64,000 nucleotides of DNA from Candidatus Undivivens industriae. GTDB lineage: Bacteria; Omnitrophota; Gorgyraeia; Gygaellales; Profunditerraquicolaceae. Made by a program: the position numbers and the translations under genes. Under the pieces are notes generated by a model that made no database searches, was not told the DNA's origin, and was given only the letters and a program-made list of their open reading frames with translations. The stretch covers positions 1,401 through 65,400 of the forward strand of contig JAAYZR010000010.1 of the NCBI GenBank assembly GCA_012514745.1, in the 5' to 3' direction. This document shows, one piece after another, positions 6,005 through 25,450 of this stretch (its first letter is position 1; each line of letters opens with the position of its first letter).

Positions 6005-7447
6005 TTAAACGCCGCCCTGCCCGCAGCAGTGCCTTTCGATGGCTAATTTACCGGCCATCTTTTCCACCGGTAAAGGATACTTACCGCTCCAGCAGGCGGT
6101 GCAGTAATAACCTGGAGGATTCCTCAAACACCCCAGCATGCCGGAGAGACTCAAATAACCGAGGGTATCCACTTCAAGGTATTTACGCACCTGGTCCAGC
6201 GACTGGTATTTATTGGCTATCAATTCGCTGGGGCGGTTGAAATCTATGCCGTAGAAACAGGGAAATTTGTGCGGAGGGCAGGATATCATCATATGCACCT
6301 CCTTGACTCCGGCCTGGCGCAGGTTGCGCACGCGGATCCGGGAAGTGGTCCCCCTGACGATGGAATCATCGACTATGACAACCTTCTTGCCGCGCAGGAC
6401 GGTCTTGAGCAGGTTGAATTTTACCTTTACTCCCATCTCCCTGGAGTCCTGCGCCGGCTGTATGAACGTCCTGCCGACGTAATGGTTCCTGATTATCCCC
6501 ATCTCAAGCGGTATGCCGGAAGCGGAGGCGTATCCCATGGCGGCCGAAAACCCGGAATCCGGAACCGGGATCACCAGGTCGGCCTTGATCGGGTATTCCA
6601 CAGCGAGGCGCTCGCCGAGCTTTCTCCTGACCAGATGCACGTTATCGGAAAAAACCGTGGAATCCGGCCTGGAGAAATAAACGTGCTCGAAAGTGCAAAA
6701 AGCGTATTTCTTGGTATGATGCAAATGCGAAGGCCGCACCGAACGGAAGCCGTTTTTATCGATGATGGCGATCTCCCCCGGTTCGAGTTCGCGCACGAAC
6801 CTCGCTCCGATAAGATCGAAAGCGCAGGTTTCAGAGGCCAGGCACCAGGCGCCGCCGGCTTTCCCGAGGGACAACGGCCTGAAACCGAGCGGATCACGCA
6901 CTCCGACCAAAGAATCATTGTTCATCAACAGCAACGAATACGCCCCTTTTATCCTGCGCAGGGCGTAAACCAGGCTCTCGATGAAATCGCCGCTCTGCGC
7001 CCTCGCCATAAGCTGAATGATGATCTCGGAATCCGTAGTGGTCTGAAATATGGAACCGCGCCTTTCCAGGTATCTGCGCAGTTCGAGCGAGTTCACCAGG
7101 TTGCCGTTATGGGCGATGCAGACCGTGCCTTTGGCGTAATCTATGAGCAGCGGCTGAGCGTTCTTCAATACGCTGGAACCGGTGGTGGAATAACGCACGT
7201 GCCCCACCGCGCAGTTGCCTTTCAACTTATGGAACACATCAGGAGTAAAGACGTCGCTCACCAGCCCCATTCCTTTGTGCACAGAGAGACGGCCGTCGGA
7301 CGCGGTCACTATGCCGCATGACTCCTGGCCCCGGTGCTGCAGGGCGTAGAGCCCCATATAAGTCAGCCAGGACGCCTGTTTATGCCCGAAAATACCGAAC
7401 AGACCGCAGAACTCTTTCGGTGAATCGTCAAAGCAATTTCCGCGCAT
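6005..7447 (-). CDS. purF: amidophosphoribosyltransferase (with a short propeptide before the catalytic Cys)
   Basis: Carries CGLFGIFGH after a ~13-aa leader, an Ntn glutamine amidotransferase domain plus a PRTase domain, and C-terminal Cys ligands. Confidence 0.9.
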   Translation of the reverse strand: MRGNCFDDSPKEFCGLFGIFGHKQASWLTYMGLYALQHRGQESCGIVTASDGRLSVHKGMGLVSDVFTPDVFHKLKGNCAVGHVRYSTTGSSVLKNAQPLLIDYAKGTVCIAHNGNLVNSLELRRYLERRGSIFQTTTDSEIIIQLMARAQSGDFIESLVYALRRIKGAYSLLLMNNDSLVGVRDPLGFRPLSLGKAGGAWCLASETCAFDLIGARFVRELEPGEIAIIDKNGFRSVRPSHLHHTKKYAFCTFEHVYFSRPDSTVFSDNVHLVRRKLGERLAVEYPIKADLVIPVPDSGFSAAMGYASASGIPLEMGIIRNHYVGRTFIQPAQDSREMGVKVKFNLLKTVLRGKKVVIVDDSIVRGTTSRIRVRNLRQAGVKEVHMMISCPPHKFPCFYGIDFNRPSELIANKYQSLDQVRKYLEVDTLGYLSLSGMLGCLRNPPGYYCTACWSGKYPLPVEKMAGKLAIERHCCGQGGV

Positions 7448-8210
7448 AGCGCACTCCGTTCTTGAAGATTAATATGCCGTCCGATTCCGCGGACTTACGC
7501 CCTCCCTCTCCCAGCGGATGCTGGGACGATTGCACGTGCCGTTCCGGATGGGGCATCAATCCGAATATCCTGCCGGTGGCGTCGCAGATACCGGCGATGT
7601 CCGCCTGCGAACCGTTGGGGTTAGCGGGATACACCGCCGCCGAACCGTCCTCATTGCAGTAAGTAACCGCCGCCTGTTTTTTGTCCAGTATGCAGCGCAA
7701 AGACGCCGTGTCGGCGGCCATGAACTTCCCCTCCCCGTGGGCCACCGGCAGATAAATCACCCTCCCTATGCCTTCGGTCCAGACACAAACCGACTCGGGG
7801 ATCCGCAGATGAACCCAGCGCGCCTCGAACTTGCTTGAATCATTGATCACCAGACTGGCTTCCTGCTTCCACTGCGCGTTCCCCGGCAGCAACCCGCTTT
7901 TCACCAGTATCTGAAAACCGTTGCAAATGCCGATCACCAGCTTCCCGGCGGAGATGAACCTCTCCACGCTATCACGAAGCTTACAGCGCAGTTCGTTGGC
8001 CAGGACTTTGCCGGCGGCGATGTCGTCGCCGTAAGAAAAACCCCCGGGCAGGGCCAAGATGTGATAATCATCCAGCTTGCGCCCGCCCGCCGCGAGGACA
8101 TTGACGTGCACAAGCTCCGCCTGCGCCCCGGAGAGCTCGAATGCGAAAGCTGTCTCCGCGTCGCAATTCGTGCCGGCGGTCCTCAATATACATACTCTCG
8201 GTTTCTTCAT
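7428..8210 (-). CDS. purQ: phosphoribosylformylglycinamidine synthase glutaminase subunit
   Basis: 260 aa class-I glutamine amidotransferase (GICNGFQ). Confidence 0.88.
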   Translation of the reverse strand: MKKPRVCILRTAGTNCDAETAFAFELSGAQAELVHVNVLAAGGRKLDDYHILALPGGFSYGDDIAAGKVLANELRCKLRDSVERFISAGKLVIGICNGFQILVKSGLLPGNAQWKQEASLVINDSSKFEARWVHLRIPESVCVWTEGIGRVIYLPVAHGEGKFMAADTASLRCILDKKQAAVTYCNEDGSAAVYPANPNGSQADIAGICDATGRIFGLMPHPERHVQSSQHPLGEGGRKSAESDGILIFKNGVRYARKLL

Positions 8211-8918: not shown

Positions 8919-11831
<2,913 letters not shown>

Positions 11832-13985: not shown

Positions 13986-14060
13986 TGGTGCCGAGGGAGG
14001 GAATCGGACCCCCCACGCCGGCCTTTTCAGGGCCGCGCTCTACCACTGAGCTACCTCGGC
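13986..14060 (-). tRNA. tRNA-Phe (GAA)
   Basis: The reverse complement folds as a cloverleaf: GCCGAGG acceptor, anticodon loop CTGAAAA, TTCGATTCC T-loop, and an encoded CCA. Confidence 0.9.
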
Positions 14061-14185: not shown

Positions 14186-14608
14186 CTATTTCTCGGACAG
14201 ACGCGCCCCCTCGGCGATGGCCTTGCTGAAGACTTCCTTGGCCATATCTATCCTGGGTTCACCTTCGTTCTTGACGGTTATGCGCAACCGGTTAATCTTT
14301 TTGGTCATACGGATTATGCGAATATCCATAATAGTCGAGAGGACGTCAAGCTGTATATATCCCCTTGCCCTGCTTTCCTGCCTGATCACCCCCTTGATAC
14401 GGCTAACCATATAAACGGCATCCCAAAGATCCCGGTAGAAAATATCCGTATCTCCCTGTATGGTATTCCTGCCGACCATCTTACCGGAAGTCAGTAAGGT
14501 TTGAGACTTTGACGTCCAGAAGAAGGGAGTGCAGCCTTGCAGCGACTGCATTATCAAAACCGCCGCCAACATTAATACTACCGCCATTCCCGCTGTTTTT
14601 CTCATCAT
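14186..14608 (-). CDS. small lipoprotein, unknown function (paralogue of the 16273-16752 product)
   Basis: Signal peptide ending SLQGC. The start is taken at the MMRKTAG methionines (ATG ATG at 14603-14608), preceded by an AGGAAAGAG RBS-like stretch. The core is similar to the second lipoprotein (shared DAVY...R..R..G.I segment). Confidence 0.55.
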   Translation of the reverse strand: MMRKTAGMAVVLMLAAVLIMQSLQGCTPFFWTSKSQTLLTSGKMVGRNTIQGDTDIFYRDLWDAVYMVSRIKGVIRQESRARGYIQLDVLSTIMDIRIIRMTKKINRLRITVKNEGEPRIDMAKEVFSKAIAEGARLSEK

Positions 14609-14705
14609 TTCAGCTCTTTCCTGGAGAATATCTTGACGAAACAAAAGATATTCAACGCTATTATACCAAACCAGAATATAATGAAAAACACCCACCCGCC
14701 GGCCG

Positions 14706-16295
14706 TCATTTACCCTCTCTCCCCAACTCTCTTCTTTTCCAGGCCGTCCTGACAAGCGAAACCAGCAGAATGAATATGCCCAGTAGAACGCATCGGGTGG
14801 CTAAAACAAAAGGCTTGTCCTGCGGCGGCACCTCTTTCATCATGATCACCGGCAGCCATTGTTGAAAGAACCACATCCCCAGTATAGCAAACAAGAACAA
14901 GGGAGTCACATATTTAATGATGAATTTATACACTGAAGGGACGGCGAGATCCGCCCCCTTATGTATCTCTTCCCAGGCGTTTTGCATGCCGAGGACCCAG
15001 CTGAAGAGTATAGTCTCTATAGTGGCGAATACCACCAGAAAAACCGTCCCGCCCCAGAAATCCAGTTCGTCCACCACCCCGTTCTTGAGAAAAAATATCA
15101 CGGGCTGGCAAAGAAGAAAAGCCGTGACGGCGAATATTATCACCGCTTTCTTCCTCTCCAGGCCGAATTCATCCTCCATAAAGGCTATCACCGGCTGCGC
15201 GAGAGATACGGAAGAAGTGATACCCGCGAGGAAAAACAGGAAAAACCAGCAGAAACCGGTGATCTGGCTCCAGGGCATACTGTTTATGATCAAGGGCATG
15301 GTAACGAATCCCAGGTTAAACACGCCCGAGACGGCGATCTCTCCCGTCGCCTGCGGCCCGAAGAAAACGAAAGCGGCGGGGATTATGATACCGCCGCCAA
15401 GTATTACCTCGGCAAACTCGTTGGTGCCTGCCGCGGTAAGACCGGAAAGCACGACATCGTCCCCTTTGGAAAGATAACTGGCGTAGGTGAGTATCACGCC
15501 TATCCCGACGCTTAACGTGAAGAACACCTGGCCCGCGGCTTCCAGCCAGACCTTTGCCGACTTCAAAGCCGTGAAATCAGGATTCCAAAGGAAACCGAAG
15601 CCGTTGGCTATGTTCCACTCAGGATGCAGGACATTCGGGGCGCCCAGACTGACCACCCGCAGCAAAAGTATCAATCCCAGAGAAAGAAGAAGCGGCAGCG
15701 CCACCTTGCAAAGCCGCTCAATACCGCCCTTGATACCGTAATACAAAACGGCGACGTTCAGGATAAACGTACAGACAAAGAAGAAGTAAGCGGTGCCTAT
15801 ACCGGAGAAGTATCCGTTTTTCTCCACCCCCTGGAACCCGTGGAGAAAGGCACGCATCATTTCCTGCCCGGTTATGCCGCGGTAACTCCCGGCGAGGGAA
15901 AAAAAGCTGTAGGCCAGCGTCCATGATTCGATGTAGGAATAATATATGAATATGACCAGCGGACCGAACAGTCCGATAACGCCGAAGTATTTTATAAACC
16001 TGTTCTTGCGCCAGATGGAATGGAATATGCCCGGCGCCGTTCCGTGCCCGAAACCGCCTCCGTAGCGGCCAAGCGTCCACTCAATCCACATCAACGGGAT
16101 CCCGAGCAAAAGGAAAGCTATAAGATAAGGGATCATGAAAGCGCCGCCGCCGTTTGCCGCTGCCTTGGCCGGGAACCTCAAGAAGTTCCCCAGCCCGATG
16201 GCGGATCCCGCCACAGCCATGACCACGCCCAGGCGGCTTCCCCAATTCTCTCTTTGCCGCTCAGGCGAATGCTTAGCCGGAAGTTTCTTGCTCAT
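14706..16295 (-). CDS. sodium-dependent transporter, neurotransmitter:sodium symporter (NSS/SNF) family
   Basis: RENWGSRLGVVMAVAGSAIGLGNFLRFP is the hallmark N-terminal NSS motif; the protein is multi-TM. The start is chosen at MSKK (16295); the ORF-track start 16322 is also possible. Confidence 0.85.
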   Translation of the reverse strand: MSKKLPAKHSPERQRENWGSRLGVVMAVAGSAIGLGNFLRFPAKAAANGGGAFMIPYLIAFLLLGIPLMWIEWTLGRYGGGFGHGTAPGIFHSIWRKNRFIKYFGVIGLFGPLVIFIYYSYIESWTLAYSFFSLAGSYRGITGQEMMRAFLHGFQGVEKNGYFSGIGTAYFFFVCTFILNVAVLYYGIKGGIERLCKVALPLLLSLGLILLLRVVSLGAPNVLHPEWNIANGFGFLWNPDFTALKSAKVWLEAAGQVFFTLSVGIGVILTYASYLSKGDDVVLSGLTAAGTNEFAEVILGGGIIIPAAFVFFGPQATGEIAVSGVFNLGFVTMPLIINSMPWSQITGFCWFFLFFLAGITSSVSLAQPVIAFMEDEFGLERKKAVIIFAVTAFLLCQPVIFFLKNGVVDELDFWGGTVFLVVFATIETILFSWVLGMQNAWEEIHKGADLAVPSVYKFIIKYVTPLFLFAILGMWFFQQWLPVIMMKEVPPQDKPFVLATRCVLLGIFILLVSLVRTAWKRRELGREGK

Positions 16296-16752
16296 CTGCA
16301 CCGACGGTCGGTTTCGTATCATTCTCCTCCGGGACGGCGGAAGGTTTCCTCTCCGGCTCCGGAGGAGGAAGCAGCGCCGACAGTTCCTCCCTCACCGTAT
16401 CCCTGGCGTAACTGCTGGGAGAGGCTATCTCGATCTCGGTTTTCCCTCCCTCAAGCCCGCGCAGAAAGACACCGGCGACGGTAGTATTCTCGGCGGACAT
16501 ATAAAACGCTATCACCCCTTCGTTACGCTCCCGGCGATAAATATACCTGCCTGCCTTCTTCAACTCGGCCAAAACCGCGGTATAAACCGCATCGCGATCC
16601 CCGGGAACAACCATTTGAACCGATTTTACCCGGGATACTTCTATCTCTCTTATTGAAGTCCCCAGCACGCCGTGCATCCTCTCTCCCACAGAAGCGCATC
16701 CGGAAAACAGAACGCTGCCCGCCACCGCCAAAACTATCAGAATCTCTCTCAT
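16273..16752 (-). CDS. small lipoprotein, unknown function
   Basis: LFSGC lipobox and a Pro/Glu-rich C-terminal tail. Confidence 0.6.
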   Translation of the reverse strand: MREILIVLAVAGSVLFSGCASVGERMHGVLGTSIREIEVSRVKSVQMVVPGDRDAVYTAVLAELKKAGRYIYRRERNEGVIAFYMSAENTTVAGVFLRGLEGGKTEIEIASPSSYARDTVREELSALLPPPEPERKPSAVPEENDTKPTVGADEQETSG

Positions 16753-16781
16753 CTTTTTCCCGCCTCCTTATAGTACGGGGA

Positions 16782-18776
16782 CTATACCAATTCCCTGATC
16801 TGCTGTAAATGCAGTCTGGTCTCTTTTTCTCCTCTTAACGAGAATTCAGCGGCCCGGTGCAGGTCAAGCCAGAACAGGCCGGAAGTATCCGGATTGATCA
16901 CAACGTCCGCCAGGGCTGCTTCCTTGCGCGCCAGTTCCGACTGCATATATTCCACGCTGCTGAAAATAAGGTCAAGAATATTCAGGCTCAGCCTGCTCTT
17001 CAGGAATCTCGCCAGCGCAGGGTGTCTCGACTGCTCCTGCGATATCTCTTCTTGCGCGCGTTCCAGTCCTTTGGACAATCTTTCCTTAGAAGGGGTAACG
17101 TTGACGGCTATTATCCTGCGCGCCCCGGACTGCACCAGCACTTCCACCGGCAGCGGATGAGCGATCCCCCCGTCGAGCAGAATATCCCCCCCGGAAATAA
17201 AAGGCCTGAATATTCCCGGCATAGAACAGCTGGTCATTATCGCGTCCACCAGCGAGCCGCTTTCCAGCACGCGCGCCTCTTTCCTTCGTATATCGCTGGC
17301 GACGATCTTCAACGGCAGTTTCACGTCCCTGAAAGTCTTGTTACCGAGGTGCCTTTTCAGGAACCGGTAAAGCTTATTACCTTTTATAAACCCTGTCCAG
17401 GGAAATGTCAAGTCAATGAGTTTCCAGGCGCAGGTATAGTCCTTGAATTCACCGGCAATCTCCAGGATCTCCCCGCTGGATTTACCGGTGACCCAGAGGC
17501 TGGCAATCACGCCCCCCATGCTGGAGCCGGAAATGACGTCTATCGGGACCTTCTCCTCTTCCAACACTTTAAGAACGCCCAAATGGCAGAGCCCGTAGGC
17601 AAAACCGACGCCCAGGGCAAGGCCGGTAGTGCAGCCGCCGCTCTCTCTGGCGATGCGCCGCACGGCCAGGGAATACCCGGTTGCCGGGTTCTTCTCCGTC
17701 TCCAATCCTTCGGCCGGAGGGCCTATCACGGGCAGCGTGGCAAAAACGCTCCTGTTGAGCACGCCGGCTCTCTCCTCCGGACGCAGACGCGCATATCCGT
17801 AATCGTTGACGATCAACTTTATATTCTCTCCGGAGAAAGATTTTTCTTTCTCCAGCTTGTCCGAGAAATTACCGGTCTTGCGCAATTCGGCGGAAGACGG
17901 CCCGCTTATCAAGTGAAGCGTTTGCGCCTGCCGCAAGAGCCCGGATACGAATTCGTCTCCGAAAGGCGGCAGATCTATTATTATGTAATGGTATTTCGAA
18001 AACAGCGAACTAAGGATATCGACCACGGTAGCCGCCGATTCGTCTCCGGTACCGGAATAATTCAAACACAAGAAATCCAGCCCTTCCCTGCCTTTCATTA
18101 TCATAGGAGAGACATCGAAACCGCGGTATTGCCTGTAATCAGACAGGTCGAGATCGGGATAACAACTCCCTGTCCCGAAAATGGCCGGCATAGCATGCAG
18201 TTTATTCTTCTGCCTGACTTCCACCACAAGGATGTTCTTTAAAGTCTCCCTGCGCAGACTGAAGGCCAGGTTGGCGGTGTAAAAAGTCTTGCCGCTGTTG
18301 GGGGACAGCCCCATCACCGCGATTATCTCCGTCTCGAAGACTTTTTTTCTCGCCGTCTCCCTGCTTCTCAGACGGCGCGAAAGCGTCCGGCTGAGATCAA
18401 GACCCATACGCGGAATTCTCTCAAGAAGGACATCGAAATTCTCTCTTTTTATTATCACCAGTCTGCTGTCGTTGAAAGCCTCGGCCGTCACTGAATGCGA
18501 TTCTCCGGTCAAGAGGGAAATAATGCCGAAATACTGCCCGCGGTGCAGGTAATCTATGAAAAGGTTCCTGCCGTGATCATCCCGGAGGTAAGCCGCCACC
18601 CTTCCGGAAAGAACACAATAGAAAGCTCCCGGAGGGTCCCCGTAATTATATATGATCGCCCCTTTGGGATAAGCGACGATATCGTATTTCCCCTCGAGCA
18701 TCCGGTATTCTTCGGGGCTGAATCCGGCGAAAAAGGGAAGGCTTCTTAATATCTCAATACCGAATTCAGGCGTCAT
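16782..18776 (-). CDS. three-domain protein: cyclic-nucleotide-binding (CAP-effector) domain, degenerate ParA/MinD-like P-loop domain, and patatin-like phospholipase domain
   Basis: N-terminal cNMP-binding fold (FFAGFSPEEYRML..GAIIYNYGDPPGAFYCVLSGRV). Middle region with a deviant Walker A (AVMGLSPNSGKT) and a Walker-B-like stretch (YIIIDLPP). C-terminal patatin motifs: GLALGVGFAYG, GSSMG (GxSxG) and DGG. The ATG overlaps the GH1 stop (ATGA). Confidence 0.8.
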   Translation of the reverse strand: MTPEFGIEILRSLPFFAGFSPEEYRMLEGKYDIVAYPKGAIIYNYGDPPGAFYCVLSGRVAAYLRDDHGRNLFIDYLHRGQYFGIISLLTGESHSVTAEAFNDSRLVIIKRENFDVLLERIPRMGLDLSRTLSRRLRSRETARKKVFETEIIAVMGLSPNSGKTFYTANLAFSLRRETLKNILVVEVRQKNKLHAMPAIFGTGSCYPDLDLSDYRQYRGFDVSPMIMKGREGLDFLCLNYSGTGDESAATVVDILSSLFSKYHYIIIDLPPFGDEFVSGLLRQAQTLHLISGPSSAELRKTGNFSDKLEKEKSFSGENIKLIVNDYGYARLRPEERAGVLNRSVFATLPVIGPPAEGLETEKNPATGYSLAVRRIARESGGCTTGLALGVGFAYGLCHLGVLKVLEEEKVPIDVISGSSMGGVIASLWVTGKSSGEILEIAGEFKDYTCAWKLIDLTFPWTGFIKGNKLYRFLKRHLGNKTFRDVKLPLKIVASDIRRKEARVLESGSLVDAIMTSCSMPGIFRPFISGGDILLDGGIAHPLPVEVLVQSGARRIIAVNVTPSKERLSKGLERAQEEISQEQSRHPALARFLKSRLSLNILDLIFSSVEYMQSELARKEAALADVVINPDTSGLFWLDLHRAAEFSLRGEKETRLHLQQIRELV

Positions 18777-19990
18777 TCAGGCAATTCTCCCGTCCTGCAG
18801 ACACGCGAGAACCACGATGCGCTTTCCCTCGCTCTGCGCTCCTGAGTGGCATAATCCACTTCCACCAGCCCGAAACGAGGAGCGAATCCCTTATCCCACT
18901 CGAAATTATCCAGCAGCGACCAATAGAAATAACCTTTAAGATCAACCCCGGCTTTTATCGCGCCCGCGGCGGCTTCGAGATGACTTTTTATGAAACCGGC
19001 CCTTTCCCGGTCGTCGGCTGTGGCTATCCCGTTCTCCAGTATGAGCACCGGCAACGCGTATTTCCTGAGGCTAAGCAGTATCTCCGACAGCCCGCGCGGA
19101 TAAATATCCCATCCCAATGAACTCTTGTCCCAGGCATTATCGGAACGCGTCCCCGACAGAAGAGACCGTAGGCCGGGAATTTCCACGCTCACAAGTTGCC
19201 GGGTGTAATAATTCAATCCGATATAATCAAGCGTCCCGGCATGAAAAGCGGCGTCCAGGAACATGCGGTTGAACATCATATCACGCAAGAAGACTCCCAG
19301 TTGATTCCATATCCCGGGCCTCCAGGGCATGAAATACTGCATATGGTGAGCCACGCTTACCGAAGGCGCCGTATTCTTATAAACCCCGCACCTGTCATGT
19401 ATTATGCGGTAAGCCAGTTCATGCGCCGAGAGCAGATTACGAGAGACCCGCACAGCTTTAATGAACGAACGCTGCCGGGGAGGCCAGACGCCGGTAAGAT
19501 AAGAATGGTAGGCGTAAACAAGCGGTTCATTTACGGTCACCCAGTAACGGGCTTTGCCCGAAAGGACGCCGGTTATTTTTTCTATATAACGGCAAAAACA
19601 GGCCGTATTGGCGCGCTTCAGCCATCCGCCCTTGCGGCTGAACCAGGCCGGGCTGGTAAAATGACACAGAGTTACCACCGGTTCCAGATCGTTGGCGGCA
19701 AGAGCGTCCAGGACGGAAGAATAATGGTCCAGGGCGGATTGCGAAAAACGTCCTTCTTCCGGTTCTACACGGCTCCACTCGATCGAGAAACGGTGGGCGT
19801 TATGCCCCAGGGAACGGGCGAGGGCGAAATCTTCCTTATAAAGGGAGAAATGCCGGCAGGCGGCGGAAGACCTATCAAGCCCGCCGCCCGACTGCTCCCA
19901 TTGCCACCAATCGTTGAAGAAATTGTCTCCTTCCACCTGATGAGAGGAAGTCGCAGCGCCCCAGAGGAACCCTTCAGGAAAAGTAAACAT
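18773..19990 (-). CDS. glycoside hydrolase family 1 beta-glucosidase
   Basis: Starts FPEGFLWGAATSSHQVEG; acid/base motif TVNEP and nucleophile motif ILENG. Confidence 0.88.
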   Translation of the reverse strand: MFTFPEGFLWGAATSSHQVEGDNFFNDWWQWEQSGGGLDRSSAACRHFSLYKEDFALARSLGHNAHRFSIEWSRVEPEEGRFSQSALDHYSSVLDALAANDLEPVVTLCHFTSPAWFSRKGGWLKRANTACFCRYIEKITGVLSGKARYWVTVNEPLVYAYHSYLTGVWPPRQRSFIKAVRVSRNLLSAHELAYRIIHDRCGVYKNTAPSVSVAHHMQYFMPWRPGIWNQLGVFLRDMMFNRMFLDAAFHAGTLDYIGLNYYTRQLVSVEIPGLRSLLSGTRSDNAWDKSSLGWDIYPRGLSEILLSLRKYALPVLILENGIATADDRERAGFIKSHLEAAAGAIKAGVDLKGYFYWSLLDNFEWDKGFAPRFGLVEVDYATQERRARESASWFSRVCRTGELPE

Positions 19991-20057
19991 TTGTCGTTAT
20001 TATATTTAGCAGCCGGTTTAAAACGGAAGAGAAGTATTCTTATATTATAATATAAAC

Positions 20058-20266
20058 AAAAAAAATCCCAACGTAAAAGTTGGGATTTTTCGCAAGTATA
20101 AGCCGATAAAGGTGACAACACAACTTGCTGCCGCACCTTTAACCGGTAGCCCAGCCACCATATTACCCACCTCTTTTGACCGTCTTAGCGGCCTCAACTG
20201 AACGTGATGTAACGTAGGTCTGTGGCTTTGCGCCCCCCGGTTTTCCCGAGGTTTACCTTTATCGGC
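20058..20266 (-). ncRNA. structured RNA of ~209 nt with its own promoter and terminator. It is either a c-di-GMP-I (GEMM)-like riboswitch leader of the GH1 operon or, alternatively, a 6S-like sRNA.
   Basis: A 12-bp stem (GCCGAUAAAGGU / ACCUUUAUCGGC) closes 165 nt. The 5' junction reads GGUAAACC-UCGG-GAAA-ACCGGG-GGGCGCAAAGCCACAGACC, which matches the Vc2-type GEMM core GGCAAACC..GAAA..GGACGCAAAGCC. An intrinsic terminator lies at 20057-20090. The GH1 ATG is ~67 nt further on, in the same orientation. Confidence 0.45.
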
Positions 20267-20273
20267 TACAAAA

Positions 20274-20302
20274 AGTATACCTCATCTCCCCGGTTTTTTC
20301 AA
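20274..20302 (-). promoter_or_regulatory. sigma70-like promoter (TTGAAA-17-TATACT) driving the structured RNA
   Basis: The minus strand reads TTGAAAAAACCGGGGAGATGAGGTATACT. The predicted TSS is the G of GCCGAUAAAGG, 7 nt downstream. Confidence 0.5.
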
Positions 20303-20329: not shown

Positions 20330-20830
20330 TTATTGCAGCGGGATAGTTTGTTCCGTTTCAACGGTCCCGGTTGAGGAAGTTAAATGCTTCTCCATGACGG
20401 CCCAGGTCTTGGGGCCGACTTTGCCGTCTACCGCCAACCCGTTGGATTTCTGGAATTCCTCTATAGCCGCTTTCGTCTTTGGTCCCACTTTACCGTCTAT
20501 ATTTCCGGAATAATATCCCGCGTTCTTAAGCGCGGTCTGGATGTCCTGGGCGGACGGTTTATACGGCCCTGAAGGAGGTAAAGGTTCCAGTACCGGAACG
20601 GCCGCCGCGGAAACCGCTTCAGCCGCCTTCTCTCCGGCGACCGGTGTCACGGCGGGAAGCCTGTTTTCCTGTATCGCAATCTTATTATCCAGGGTCTGCC
20701 CCCCCAGAGAATCAGCCGACATAGGAGCCTGCATCTCCTCAAGACTCTGCTGTTTTTTATTGCACCCGTTTACGGCCAGGAAAGATACGGCCACCGCTAC
20801 CACCGCTGTGAAGATCTTAGTTCTGCCCAT
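20330..20830 (-). CDS. lipoprotein with two peptidoglycan-binding (PG_binding_1) repeats
   Basis: Lipobox AVNGC. Two DGKVGPKT..A..EFQ repeats. The start is chosen at MGRTKIF, preceded by AAAGGAG. Confidence 0.7.
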   Translation of the reverse strand: MGRTKIFTAVVAVAVSFLAVNGCNKKQQSLEEMQAPMSADSLGGQTLDNKIAIQENRLPAVTPVAGEKAAEAVSAAAVPVLEPLPPSGPYKPSAQDIQTALKNAGYYSGNIDGKVGPKTKAAIEEFQKSNGLAVDGKVGPKTWAVMEKHLTSSTGTVETEQTIPLQ

Positions 20831-21094
20831 TGTTCCATCTGCTCCTTTCATGAATAATACTGGAGCCCCCTCACGCAAAATCCGGAGACTCATGTTTCCG
20901 GCAAAGCCAAGGCTTCACCGGTACTCGCCGCATATCCGATTCTATACTTACTCCGACGCACTCCCCCGACACCCGCGGGCAGGGAATGAATTTATTTTAA
21001 CCCTTATTACCGGAAAATCAAATCATATTTAGGGTCCCGCTTCCCGGCGCCCATCTCTGCACAGTCCTTCCTGATCCGCCCGCGCACTCTAAAA

Positions 21095-22733
<1,639 letters not shown>

Positions 22734-22741
<8 letters not shown>

Positions 22742-23843
22742 TTTTCTTCCCGCGGCATTTGTGTTTCGCTGCCGAATCTACGAAAGAAGCGAAGAGATAG
22801 GCGGCGTCGTGCGGCCCAGGAGACGCCTCCGGATGGAACTGGACTGAAAAAACAGGCAGTTTCCTGTGTTTCATCCCCTCATGCGTATCATCGTTGAGAT
22901 TTATATGAGTGACCTGCAACTCTTTTTCGTTCAACGATTTCATATCCAAACAAAATCCGTGATTCTGCACGGTAATAGCCACTCTACCGCTGTTCAAATC
23001 CTTTACCGGATGATTAGCTCCGTGATGCCCGAATTTTAATTTATAAGTCCTGCCGCCGAAAGCCAGACCGAGCATCTGGTTGCCGAGACAGATGCCGAAC
23101 ATTGGAATACCGGAAGAGGCCAGTTCCTTGACCGTGTCTATAACGTAAGTCACAGCCGCGGGATCGCCCGGACCGTTGGAAAGCATAATGCCGTCCGGTT
23201 TCCAGGACAGTATATCCGAGGCGGAGGTAACGGCGGGAAAAACCCTGACCCGGCAGCCGAGCCCGGCAAGGATACGCATGATGTTGTATTTCACTCCGCA
23301 GTCCAGGACAGCCACTTTATATTTACCATTGTCGTTCCAATCATAGGCTTGCCGGCAGGAGACATCCTTTACAAGATCGATGCCCACAAGGCCGCTCCAG
23401 GAACGCGCCTTTTCCAGCAGCGCCGTCACGTCGTCGCATACTGCCCCGGCGGCGATAACGGCTTTAAGCGCTCCGGCTTCCCGTATGCGCAGCGTAAGCG
23501 CGCGGGTATCCACTCCCTCTACCGCGGGTATGCCGTGCGCGCAAAGATAATCCGGCAACGAACTCTTAGACCTCCAGTTGCTGGCAATCCGGCTGCATTC
23601 TTTAACCACGAACCCTTCCACGAAAGGCCGGCCGGATTCCGCGTCTTCTTCATTGATGCCGTAATTGCCTATCAAAGGGTAGGTCATGGCCACTATCTGC
23701 CCCTTATAGGAAGGGTCGGTGATTATCTCCTGATACCCGGACATGCTGGTATTGAAGACGATCTCCCCGCAGCGGACCCCCTGCGCCCCGAATGATCTCC
23801 CCCGGAATACGCTGCCGTCTTCCAGGACCAAAGCAGCCTGCAT
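22734..23843 (-). CDS. carA: carbamoyl-phosphate synthase small (glutaminase) subunit
   Basis: Starts [15 protein letters not shown]. The start is set at the ATG at 23843 (preceded by AAAGAGGT) rather than the ORF-track 23870, which overlaps pyrG. Confidence 0.88.
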
Positions 23844-23845
23844 GT

Positions 23846-25450
23846 TTACCTCTTTATTTTTAGAGCGCACCTGATAAAATCGCGGAATATCGGATGGGCC
23901 TTGTCGGGCTTGGACTTGAATTCAGGATGGAACTGCACCGCCATGAAGAACGGATGGCCGGGCAACTCCACGATCTCGACAAGATTCTTTTTCGGGTAAA
24001 TACCGGAGAAGACCATACCTTTCTTCTCCATCAAACGGCGGTATTTATTGTTGAATTCGTATCGATGCCGGTGCCGCTCTTCTATCAGCCTTTTTCTGTA
24101 ACAGCACTGCGCCCGGGTATTAGGCGATATCTGGCAGGGATAAGCGCCCAGGCGCATGGTACCGCCCATATCCTCCACATCTTCCTGTTCCTTTAAAAGG
24201 CTGATTACCGGATCCCGGGTATCGGGGGCGAACTCGCTGGAATCAGCGCCCTTGAGACCGCAGATATTCCTGGCGAATTCGATGACCGCGCATTGCATCC
24301 CAAGGCAGATGCCGAAGAACGGGACGCGCTTGGTCCTGGCATATTCGACGCTCTTTATCTTCCCTTCAATGCCGCGGGATCCGAACCCGCCCGGCACCAG
24401 GATACCGCAGACATTACGCAGATAATGTTCCGCCCCTTCTTTATCAATATCCTCGGAATCTATCTTTTCCACTTCCACTCTGCAGTCGTTCGCGATACCG
24501 GCGTGCGCCAAAGCCTCGTAAATAGACTTATAGGCGTCCTGCAGGCCGATATATTTGCCGACTACGGCGATCCTGGTCTTGTGGCGCGGGGAAACAGCCT
24601 TCTCCACCACGCTTTTCTCCCAATTCTTCAGGGTGGAAGGCCTGGCTCTAATGCCGAAATGTTTCAGTATGAGCCTGTCAAGAGACTGGTCCTTGAATAT
24701 CAAAGGAAGCTGATAGATCGAATCCACATCCTTGGCTTCGATAACCGCCTCCTGCGGCACGCTGCAGAAAAGCGATATCTTCTCTTTCAATTCCATCGAG
24801 AGGCTTTTTTCGCTGCGGCAGATGAGGATGTCCGGCTGTATTCCTATCTCGCGCAGGGTGCCGACACTGTGCTGAGTAGGCTTTGTCTTCATCTCTCCGG
24901 CGACCTTTATATAAGGGACCAGGGTGAGATGGGCGTAAAGAACGTTATTCTGTCCGGCGTCCAGCCTGAACTGGCGCACAGCTTCCAGGAAAGGAAGGCT
25001 CTCGATGTCTCCGACCGTGCCGCCGATCTCCACCAGCACCACCTGCGCCCTGGAGACGGCCGCCACTTTCTTGATGCGGTCTTTTATCTCGTTGGTAATG
25101 TGAGGAATGACCTGGATGGTCCTGCCGAGGTAATCTCCCTTGCGTTCGCGCGAGATCACGGCGTGATATACCTGGCCGGTGGTAACGTTGTTGAATTTGC
25201 CGGTCCTGGCGGAAGTGAAGCGTTCGTAATGCCCGAGATCGAGGTCGGTCTCGGCGCCGTCGTCGGTCACGTACACTTCACCGTGCTGGTAAGGGTTCAT
25301 CGTGCCGGGGTCGACGTTGAGATAGGGGTCGAACTTCATCAAGGCGACACGCAGACCCTGAGATTCCAGTATCTTGCCTATGGAAGCGGCAGCAATCCCC
25401 TTGCCGAGGCTGGAAATAACGCCGCCGGTGATGAATATGTATTTACACAT
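23846..25450 (-). CDS. pyrG: CTP synthase
   Basis: Starts [18 protein letters not shown]; carries the GIC(L)GMQ glutaminase motif. Confidence 0.92.

Follow-up and report, generated by a model that had tools for sequence, protein, structure and literature searches.

A coupled beta-glycosidase and three-domain patatin-like lipase conserved in Omnitrophota, a candidate pair for glycolipid breakdown

The window analyzed here is a 64,000-nucleotide stretch of the genome of Candidatus Undivivens industriae (Omnitrophota; GenBank assembly GCA_012514745.1, contig JAAYZR010000010.1, positions 1,401 to 65,400). Its minus strand carries two adjoining genes. The first one encodes a 405-residue glycoside hydrolase of family 1 (GH1). 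The second one encodes a 664-residue protein composed of a sensor domain of the CRP/CAP type, a MinD/ParA-like domain and a patatin-like domain, hereafter called the lipase. The two reading frames overlap by the tetranucleotide ATGA. The pair is preceded by a riboswitch aptamer of the cyclic di-GMP (c-di-GMP) type and has a lipoprotein gene on either side. Literature searches turned up no earlier account of the protein family or of the operon. The pair is conserved on the chromosomes of Omnitrophota and is most likely involved in glycolipid breakdown rather than acting as a toxin or as a phage-defense effector. The coordinates of all features are collected in Table 1.

Pfam recognized both ends of the lipase. 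A cNMP_binding domain (PF00027) was found at residues 34-120 (2e-19, 69.6 bits against a cut-off of 27.5) and a Patatin domain (PF01734) at residues 386-547 (2e-28, 100.3 bits against a cut-off of 27.7). The middle region, about residues 147-380, was left uncalled by Pfam and gave weak matches in NCBIfam, to BcsQ (0.004) and to a tyrosine-autokinase P-loop (1e-4). An AlphaFold2 model was built from 121 homologues (mean pLDDT 79, pTM 0.77). In this model the middle domain, mostly above pLDDT 85, displays strands and helices in alternation, as in P-loop NTPases. Search for structural similarities using Foldseek matched it to the ParA-family ATPase 3EA0 (E 1e-12, TM 0.77) and to MinD (4V02 and 1HYQ, TM 0.77-0.78; the range is 0.73-0.78 when 1G3Q is included). 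A profile of the family in this region matched E. coli MinD at 2e-9, and relatives carry precomputed PF01656 and PF13614 matches. Pairwise BLASTP comparisons with E. coli CRP (sensor domain) and E. coli MinD (middle domain) were uninformative; family-profile searches resolved both. The model, the Foldseek matches and the MinD profile match settle the fold of the middle domain. The three-domain organization proposed in an earlier note on this DNA, with a ParA/MinD-type P-loop fold at its center, is therefore correct.

When the middle domain was searched against 1.84 billion cluster representatives, 77 proteins were matched, nearly all of them at the same position in proteins of 620-713 residues with the same architecture. 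Its nearest relatives outside the family are receiver-AAA_31 proteins of the CpaE/TadZ type. The P-loop itself is degenerate, as the earlier note had read it. The lipase carries the motifs GLSPNSGKT at residue 156 and YIIIDLPP at residue 264. The MinD motif GKGGVGKT aligns with LSPNSGKT in the window protein and with SYSQAGKT in the consensus of its clade. Thus, the signature lysine and both glycines of the deviant Walker A motif xKGGxxGK[ST] are gone and GKT alone is left. Gly162, Lys163, Thr164 and the Walker B residue Asp268 show little or no variation among 121 sequences of the window's clade.

The sensor domain is structurally close to the CRP-family proteins 4EV0, 3D0S and 2PQQ (Foldseek with the AlphaFold2 model). 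In CRP, Glu72 contacts the ribose 2'-OH of cAMP and Arg82 contacts its phosphate. The family-profile alignment places Ile85 at the position of Glu72 and His94 at that of Arg82, and CRP Ser83 is kept as Ser95. Residues His94, Ser95 and Val96 are invariant in the 121 sequences. In deeper branches of the family, the replacement of Arg by His is universal, and the Glu (in the motif FGE) is kept only in a clade with beta-oxidation neighbors described below. The window protein therefore lacks the Glu and the Arg of the phosphate-binding cassette that contact cAMP or cGMP, and gating by a canonical cyclic nucleotide, as once suggested for it, is not borne out. Strong conservation of the cassette nevertheless argues for a functional pocket.

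The patatin domain superimposes on PlpD (PDB 5FYA) with a TM of 0.83. Its catalytic dyad is intact, with Ser419 in GSSMG (residue 417) and Asp535 in DGG (residue 535), both invariant in the same 121 sequences. The oxyanion block GVGFAYG aligns with SGGAARG of PlpD, the arginine being replaced by the invariant Tyr394. The basic residue of the block G-G-x-[RK]-G is thus missing, and across the family this position is non-basic (Phe, Leu, Tyr or His). Since the oxyanion glycines are kept, the block probably still works, though it is atypical. A basic oxyanion residue is likewise missing from neutral-lipid PNPLA enzymes such as ATGL, which would fit a non-phospholipid substrate.

The 405-residue open reading frame (ORF) upstream of the lipase gene matches Pfam Glyco_hydro_1 at 9e-82 (275 bits). 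Its acid/base residue Glu155 (NEP motif) and its nucleophile Glu319 (ENG motif) are invariant in 66 orthologues. The best solved relative is 1VFF, aligned at 3e-104 in one full-length stretch; the next one, aligned in two stretches, comes 24 orders of magnitude behind (5e-80). 1VFF is BGPh, a membrane-associated enzyme of Pyrococcus horikoshii that prefers long-chain alkyl glucosides, and a close relative of BGPh hydrolyzes steryl glucosides (PMC4687101; PMC8790579). BGPh shares with the window enzyme the short form of about 405-423 residues. It differs in being archaeal, and it is not described as gene-coupled to a lipase. By analogy, the window GH1 enzyme probably acts at the membrane surface and takes off a glycosyl head group. 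Two irregular loci were seen among the relatives described below. In L052 (7624-7977), the GH1 frame is broken about 350 nt before its usual end, possibly a pseudogene or an assembly error. In L080 (6984-7977), an extra gene of about 300 codons sits between GH1 and lipase.

The distribution of the lipase was studied with a search over 5.8 billion proteins and with a scan of GTDB using one genome per species; 80 loci (L001-L080) were retrieved. The protein search revealed hundreds of relatives of about 670 residues at 47-50% identity, and all those with a name belong to Omnitrophota. When a distant member served as the seed of another search, Omnitrophota names were again the only ones returned. 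At least 210 GTDB species encode a relative, almost all of them Omnitrophota, and several hundred metagenomic clusters do so as well. GTDB R232 counts about 700 Omnitrophota species (bioRxiv 10.64898/2026.06.07.730766). Because the search patterns were narrow and metagenome-assembled genomes are incomplete, 210 species is a substantial lower bound. The three-domain architecture is thus phylum-wide and, as far as the searches could see, phylum-restricted. With this distribution and a core chromosomal synteny, the arrangement is not the unusual one it had been taken for.

The order of genes in the 80 loci is retained at about 50% protein identity: a lipoprotein with a PG_binding_1 domain, GH1, lipase, a 159-residue lipoprotein, in most relatives small genes, an SNF transporter, a 189-residue ORF and tRNA-Phe. 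GH1 lies directly upstream of the lipase in 74 of the 80 loci, the 159-residue lipoprotein directly downstream in 69, and the peptidoglycan-binding gene upstream in 64. The distance from the GH1 stop to the lipase start is -4 to +3 nt in 58 of the 74 loci with both genes. Translational coupling, which the ATGA overlap had suggested, is therefore a conserved trait. The 159-residue lipoprotein found no family match. A promoter-like site stands within the last codons of the lipase gene, so the co-transcribed core may be GH1 and lipase only. The lipase had also been described as next to tRNA-Phe; the tRNA gene (13986-14060) is indeed near, but lies 2.7 kb and three genes downstream. In the window, the ORFs of the lipoprotein, the SNF transporter and the 189-residue protein (14186-16752) overlap one another by about 50 nt. 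Most relatives (L006-L078) have three small genes between the 159-residue lipoprotein and the SNF gene, encoding a MazG-like protein of 104 residues, a protein of 77 residues and a HycI-like protease. These genes are absent from the window's clade.

The second-messenger riboswitch suspected upstream of the pair is a genuine c-di-GMP-I (GEMM-I) aptamer. It scores 59.7 bits with Rfam RF01051 (gathering threshold 35) and 103.9 bits with our own covariance model. In 28 orthologous copies, 97.7% of the cells are paired, against 21-45% in slid controls, and 10 of the 19 pairs show compensatory changes. The ligand-contact positions, mapped by Vc2 numbering, presumably hold the bases G, A and C of standard c-di-GMP binders. 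Promoter P1 starts the riboswitch transcript, and the same signal, 'CTTGAAAA ... TGTATACT', lies 6-8 nt ahead of the aptamer in about 25 orthologous loci. With our model, the riboswitch was found in 30 of the 80 loci and in the window, always between the peptidoglycan-binding gene and GH1. This corresponds to about 44% of the roughly 68 loci with enough upstream sequence. In four species where GH1 is absent, it stands directly upstream of the lipase (L029 7095-7244, L043 5205-5317, L046 491-636, L059 1843-1996), which suggests that it is the lipase to which the riboswitch is tied. The aptamers themselves show lineage-specific insertions, 41 nt in the P2 loop of the window copy and extra P1 hairpins in L028 (6462-6608) and L047 (6439-6619). 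Those of L006 and L012 score better as RF03167 (c-di-GMP-I-GGC). In L029, about 730 nt separate riboswitch and lipase and seemingly encode a small receiver-like protein.

Downstream of the aptamer, an 11-nt anti-aptamer is perfectly complementary to the 5' strand of the aptamer. In the minimum-free-energy fold, the two form a long-range helix of 13 bp. The anti-aptamer motif recurs in 28 loci with a riboswitch, about half of which have a U-rich run behind it; this run is poor in the window (CUUAUACUU). As judged from these sequences, anti-aptamer and U-rich run have the design of a ligand-ON terminator. Next comes an inverted repeat with a 13-bp stem and a U8 tract, an intrinsic terminator. 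The repeat is site-specific and is conserved in 49 of the 80 loci, including riboswitch-less ones. Its 3' arm, TTGGGA, doubles as the -35 box of a second promoter, P2, which explains its conservation. In 40 of the 49 repeat-bearing loci, TTGGGA is followed after 17-18 nt by an extended -10 box, TGnTATAAT. In most species the GH1 start codon comes 6-11 nt after this box, so the P2 mRNA would be leaderless or nearly so. In the window the P2 leader is about 40 nt; the window's close relatives have a -10 box without TG, with the ATG about 50 nt downstream. The leader resembles RF01051 riboswitches in its above-threshold score and covarying helices. It differs from the usual platform of this class in the conserved anti-aptamer, in a terminator that does not compete with the aptamer and in the second promoter before the ORF.

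The inverted repeat was also considered as the operator of a CRP-like regulator, centered near -41. This was dropped, the TTGGGA arm being the -35 box of P2 and a U-tract being present. A search for an antiterminator able to pair with the 5' arm of the main terminator yielded, by eye, weak complementarity to the CUGGGUU segment of the aptamer and nothing more; folding lent it no support. The repeat pattern has four matches in the window, both strands counted, where 0.1 is expected by chance. A second copy (TCCCAGCGGATGCTGGGA) is located at 7509-7526, inside the purQ ORF and close to its 3' end.

A sister clade offers the strongest single clue to the function of the lipase. Distant family members, 25-30% identical to the window protein in the middle domain, were sampled. 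Six of their loci (L081, L083, L086, L087, L088, L089) belong to one large clade, and there the lipase gene is in every case directly followed by genes for 3-hydroxyacyl-CoA dehydrogenase and enoyl-CoA hydratase and, further on, for acyl-CoA synthetase. A thiolase gene stands between the lipase and the dehydrogenase/hydratase genes in four of the six loci, an alpha/beta-hydrolase gene is found in four and an electron-transfer flavoprotein pair in one. Glycerol kinase precedes the lipase in four loci, accompanied in two of these by glycerophosphodiester phosphodiesterase (GDPD). Together, these genes span the whole way from an acyl-glycerolipid to acetyl-CoA and glycerol phosphate. Read in this manner, the GH1 of the window's clade takes the head-group-removing place that GDPD has in the sister clade. 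Just upstream of the glycerol kinase/lipase operon, five of the six loci carry a PilZ-YajQ-(YjbQ)-PilZ group, and L083 has two PilZ genes and no YajQ. Both families, PilZ and YajQ, carry the annotation of c-di-GMP receptors. A link to c-di-GMP is thus seen twice independently, as a riboswitch in the GH1 clade and as the PilZ-YajQ-PilZ group in the beta-oxidation clade. The deep members L082 and L084 have unrelated neighbors.

The best-supported view of the lipase is that of a regulated lipid acyl hydrolase that starts glycerolipid or glycolipid breakdown and is tied to c-di-GMP signaling. For the two genes together, we see about an even chance that they form a conserved chromosomal lipid-breakdown pair of Omnitrophota, in which the lipase is sensor-gated and GH1 takes off the glycosyl head group. 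In the mechanism we propose, the 664-residue protein would be a cytoplasmic acyl hydrolase working at the membrane surface, with an activity gated from the N-terminus. Its CRP-fold sensor would bind a ligand other than canonical cAMP or cGMP. It would act through the MinD/ParA-like module, which would serve as a dimerization or membrane-association switch, nucleotide-dependent or, in some lineages, nucleotide-independent; it is the architecture that suggests this succession from sensor to switch to patatin domain. The lipase would be produced in a fixed proportion with the BGPh-type GH1 enzyme. The latter would strip a beta-glycosyl head group off a lipophilic aglycone, for example glycosyl-diacylglycerol, and the pair would release sugar, glycerol and free fatty acids from the glycolipid. 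Transcription would start at the conserved promoter P2 and, in the evaluable loci with a riboswitch, window included, also at P1, read through the aptamer. Binding of c-di-GMP could then either raise expression of the operon by read-through or lower it by occluding P2.

Several observations weigh against this assignment. The beta-oxidation genes are found neither near the 80 GH1-clade loci nor in the window. When the sister-clade genes were used as queries against the 80 loci, acyl-CoA synthetase alone matched, at one locus (L067). In the window itself, no counterpart of the beta-oxidation, glycerol kinase, GDPD, PilZ or YajQ genes was found. Conserved synteny also runs on to unrelated genes (MFS, Mrp/Mbh-like subunits, MazG-like, HycI, SNF transporter and tRNA-Phe). 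Adjacency is therefore weaker evidence here than usual, and the stop/start junction and the shared promoter weigh more. The likeness of GH1 to BGPh amounts to about 50% similarity, and its preference for lipophilic aglycones is predicted from sequence proximity to 1VFF. Many family members outside the window's clade have lost the Walker A lysine, so ATP binding cannot belong to the mechanism throughout the family. In computed folds, the strong terminator that separates the aptamer from GH1 forms in any state of the aptamer, and the same terminator and P2 are present in riboswitch-less species; control of GH1 and lipase by c-di-GMP is therefore only putative. Finally, the function of every family member is a prediction from genes and models.

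The main rival reading supposes that the pair trims the head groups and acyl chains of the cell's own glycolipids and phospholipids, not for catabolism but when c-di-GMP or the sensor ligand signals a change of lifestyle such as attachment to a host or a surface. The lack of beta-oxidation genes near the GH1-clade loci and the c-di-GMP link would both suit it. So would the two conserved lipoproteins that flank the pair, one of them peptidoglycan-binding, but these neighbors may merely reflect conserved synteny. Patatin enzymes of the NTE type are known for phospholipid homeostasis, which also counts for remodeling. The sister clade, with its thiolase, 3-hydroxyacyl-CoA dehydrogenase, enoyl-CoA hydratase, acyl-CoA synthetase and glycerol kinase, is however plainly catabolic. 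We regard remodeling of the cell's own membrane as possible, though somewhat unlikely.

It is more doubtful still that GH1 and lipase are functionally unrelated, an ordinary cytoplasmic beta-glucosidase for soluble oligosaccharides beside a housekeeping esterase like RssA or NTE, held together by the frozen gene order of small genomes. The long-range synteny does take in clearly unrelated genes, GH1 is missing from 6 of the 80 loci where the lipase is still present, and the deeper members L082 and L084 have other neighbors. Mere frozen order does not easily account for a stop/start overlap or abutment kept in 58 of 74 loci whose proteins are about 50% identical, nor for a promoter P2 common to both genes, with the terminator parting both from the upstream gene. 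The GH1 subtype, moreover, would be the lipophilic-aglycone type. The earlier note had named as its own counter-case a common housekeeping NTE-like lipase without a P-loop fold and in unrelated contexts. The protein is indeed common across the phylum; the P-loop fold, however, is present, and the contexts are lipid or glycolipid catabolic rather than unrelated. With such consistent contexts, the part of the earlier idea that spoke of ligand-activated lipid remodeling survives.

The other part, a second-messenger-activated toxic phospholipase like CapV or CapE of cyclic-oligonucleotide-based antiphage signaling systems (CBASS), killing the cell or a competitor, is very unlikely and largely refuted by context: the patatin domain superimposes on the CapE and CapV filament structures, the N-terminus has a nucleotide-type sensor fold and PADLOC gave weak domain-level matches to phospholipase effectors (best E 2e-6), but the cNMP-contact residues are absent, the neighbors of the family are catabolic, and no cyclase or other defense gene is nearby. 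PADLOC found nothing for the neighbors of the lipase. No CD-NTase cyclase or defense island was found in the window, where the large flanking ORFs were scanned, in the gene clusters conserved among the 80 loci or in gene tables made for 9 further loci. The window shows no mobile-element gene, the GC content of the region is unremarkable, and the locus sits among biosynthetic genes in a housekeeping region. Inheritance looks vertical and phylum-wide. CapV and CapE, for their part, are activated by a nucleotide signal. Their genes stand next to a CD-NTase in mobile defense islands, and their solved complexes were deposited, according to the entry titles, with the cyclic oligonucleotide bound directly. 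The window lipase differs from them in being core-chromosomal, in having separate sensor and MinD-like domains and in the catabolic neighbors of its family.

Comparison with other known systems places the lipase family among the regulated patatin lipases. PlpD and RssA (PDB 5FYA; NCBIfam NF007623) share its fold, the GxSxG serine and the DGG aspartate, with about 27% identity over the catalytic core. However, PlpD is the passenger domain of a secreted type-V protein and RssA is single-domain, neither has a sensor or a MinD-like domain, and their oxyanion block carries Arg. NTE/PNPLA6 also has a cyclic-nucleotide-binding-type domain ahead of the patatin domain, and JGI labels many members of the present family 'NTE family protein'. 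NTE has an N-terminal membrane anchor, several cyclic-nucleotide-binding domains, no intervening P-loop domain and a GGGxRG oxyanion block. In contrast, the window lipase has one such binding domain, with a MinD/ParA fold between it and the patatin domain, and lacks both a transmembrane segment and a basic oxyanion residue. CpaE and TadZ, which act in the localization of pilus machinery, likewise join an N-terminal signal-receiver fold to an AAA_31 MinD/ParA-like ATPase. They differ in having a receiver domain in place of the CRP-type domain and no enzymatic C-terminal domain.

If the lipid-breakdown model is right, a role would be assigned to a protein that, like few others, spans the phylum Omnitrophota and is restricted to it. 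A sensor and a MinD-like switch in cis would be a third mode of patatin-lipase regulation, beside the CBASS filament and eukaryotic NTE. c-di-GMP signaling would be tied to lipid breakdown by two independent routes, the riboswitch in one clade and the PilZ/YajQ neighbors in another. The genes also provide a concrete enzyme pair for testing bacterial glycolipid turnover. Many Omnitrophota are thought to depend on host cells. A bolder version, which we consider improbable, is that the lipase harvests glycolipids from host or prey membranes together with the membrane-surface GH1 enzyme under c-di-GMP control, and is switched on by a small molecule via a re-tooled CRP domain (His for Arg) and a MinD-like pseudo-ATPase. 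If true, the lipase would be a nutritional 'lipid-mining' module central to an episymbiotic lifestyle, and patatin enzymes would be seen to be gated in a novel manner. The phylum is largely uncultured, and the main genomic surveys consulted do not discuss its lipid metabolism (PMC10066038; bioRxiv 10.64898/2026.06.07.730766).

Table 1. Features of the GH1-lipase locus (window positions) and of the sister-clade loci (positions in each locus)
Feature	Position	Strand	Basis or remark
GH1 beta-glycosidase, BGPh type, short form, 405 aa	18773-19990	minus	Pfam Glyco_hydro_1, 1VFF
664-aa protein: sensor, MinD-like domain and patatin lipase	16782-18776	minus	ORF list, Pfam, AlphaFold2 model, Foldseek
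CRP/CAP-type effector domain, residues ~8-140, non-canonical phosphate-binding cassette FGIISLLTGESHSVTA	18357-18755	minus	Pfam, profile alignment to CRP
MinD/ParA-fold (SIMIBI, AAA_31-like) domain, residues ~147-380, degenerate P-loop	17637-18338	minus	Foldseek, profile against MinD
Patatin-like acyl hydrolase with C-terminal helical extension, residues ~384-664	16785-17627	minus	Pfam, PlpD 5FYA
ATGA stop/start overlap, translational coupling	18773-18776	minus	lipase ATG 18776-18774 over GH1 TGA 18775-18773
Promoter P1, TTGAAA-17-TATACT, starts riboswitch transcript	20274-20302	minus	consensus scan, 10/12 matches
c-di-GMP-I (GEMM-I) aptamer, 41-nt insertion in P2 loop	20137-20273 (Rfam 20142-20267)	minus	RF01051
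Anti-aptamer CCUUUAUCGGC, perfectly complementary to aptamer 5' strand GCCGAUAAAGG (20256-20266)	20102-20112	minus	11 nt; fold
Inverted repeat/intrinsic terminator, 13-bp stem TCCCAAC...GTTGGGA and U8	20058-20091	minus	terminator scan, folds
Promoter P2, TTGGGA-16-TATAAT, -35 box in 3' arm of terminator	20044-20071	minus	consensus scan
Promoter-like site TTTACA-17-TATAGT with TG	16781-16809	minus	promoter scan; in last lipase codons, just before 159-aa lipoprotein gene
Conserved upstream lipoprotein, PG_binding_1 domain	20330-20893	minus	Pfam 3e-21; 64/80 loci
Conserved downstream lipoprotein, 159 aa	16273-16752	minus	69/80 loci
PilZ-YajQ-(YjbQ)-PilZ group, sister clade	L081 1890-3543; L086 1390-3573; L087 2973-4414; L088 2221-4283; L089 4211-5844

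The lipase locus is flanked by genes of purine, pyrimidine and amino-acid biosynthesis, a housekeeping context. The other genes of the window include purD, purM, purF, purQ, purL, purB, carA, carB, pyrG, leuA, ilvB, ilvD, metK, ahcY, PTS enzyme I and similar ones. In the carB/carA region (21095-22741 and 22734-23870), the carB ORF has 548 codons, corresponds to the N-terminal half of the large subunit of carbamoyl-phosphate synthase and overlaps carA. The C-terminal half is not adjacent, and carB appears to be split. A 970-codon ORF at 8919-11831 combines PurS, the FGAR-AT linker and AIRS/AIRS_C and looks like a PurS-PurL fusion; purQ is a separate gene at 7428-8210.

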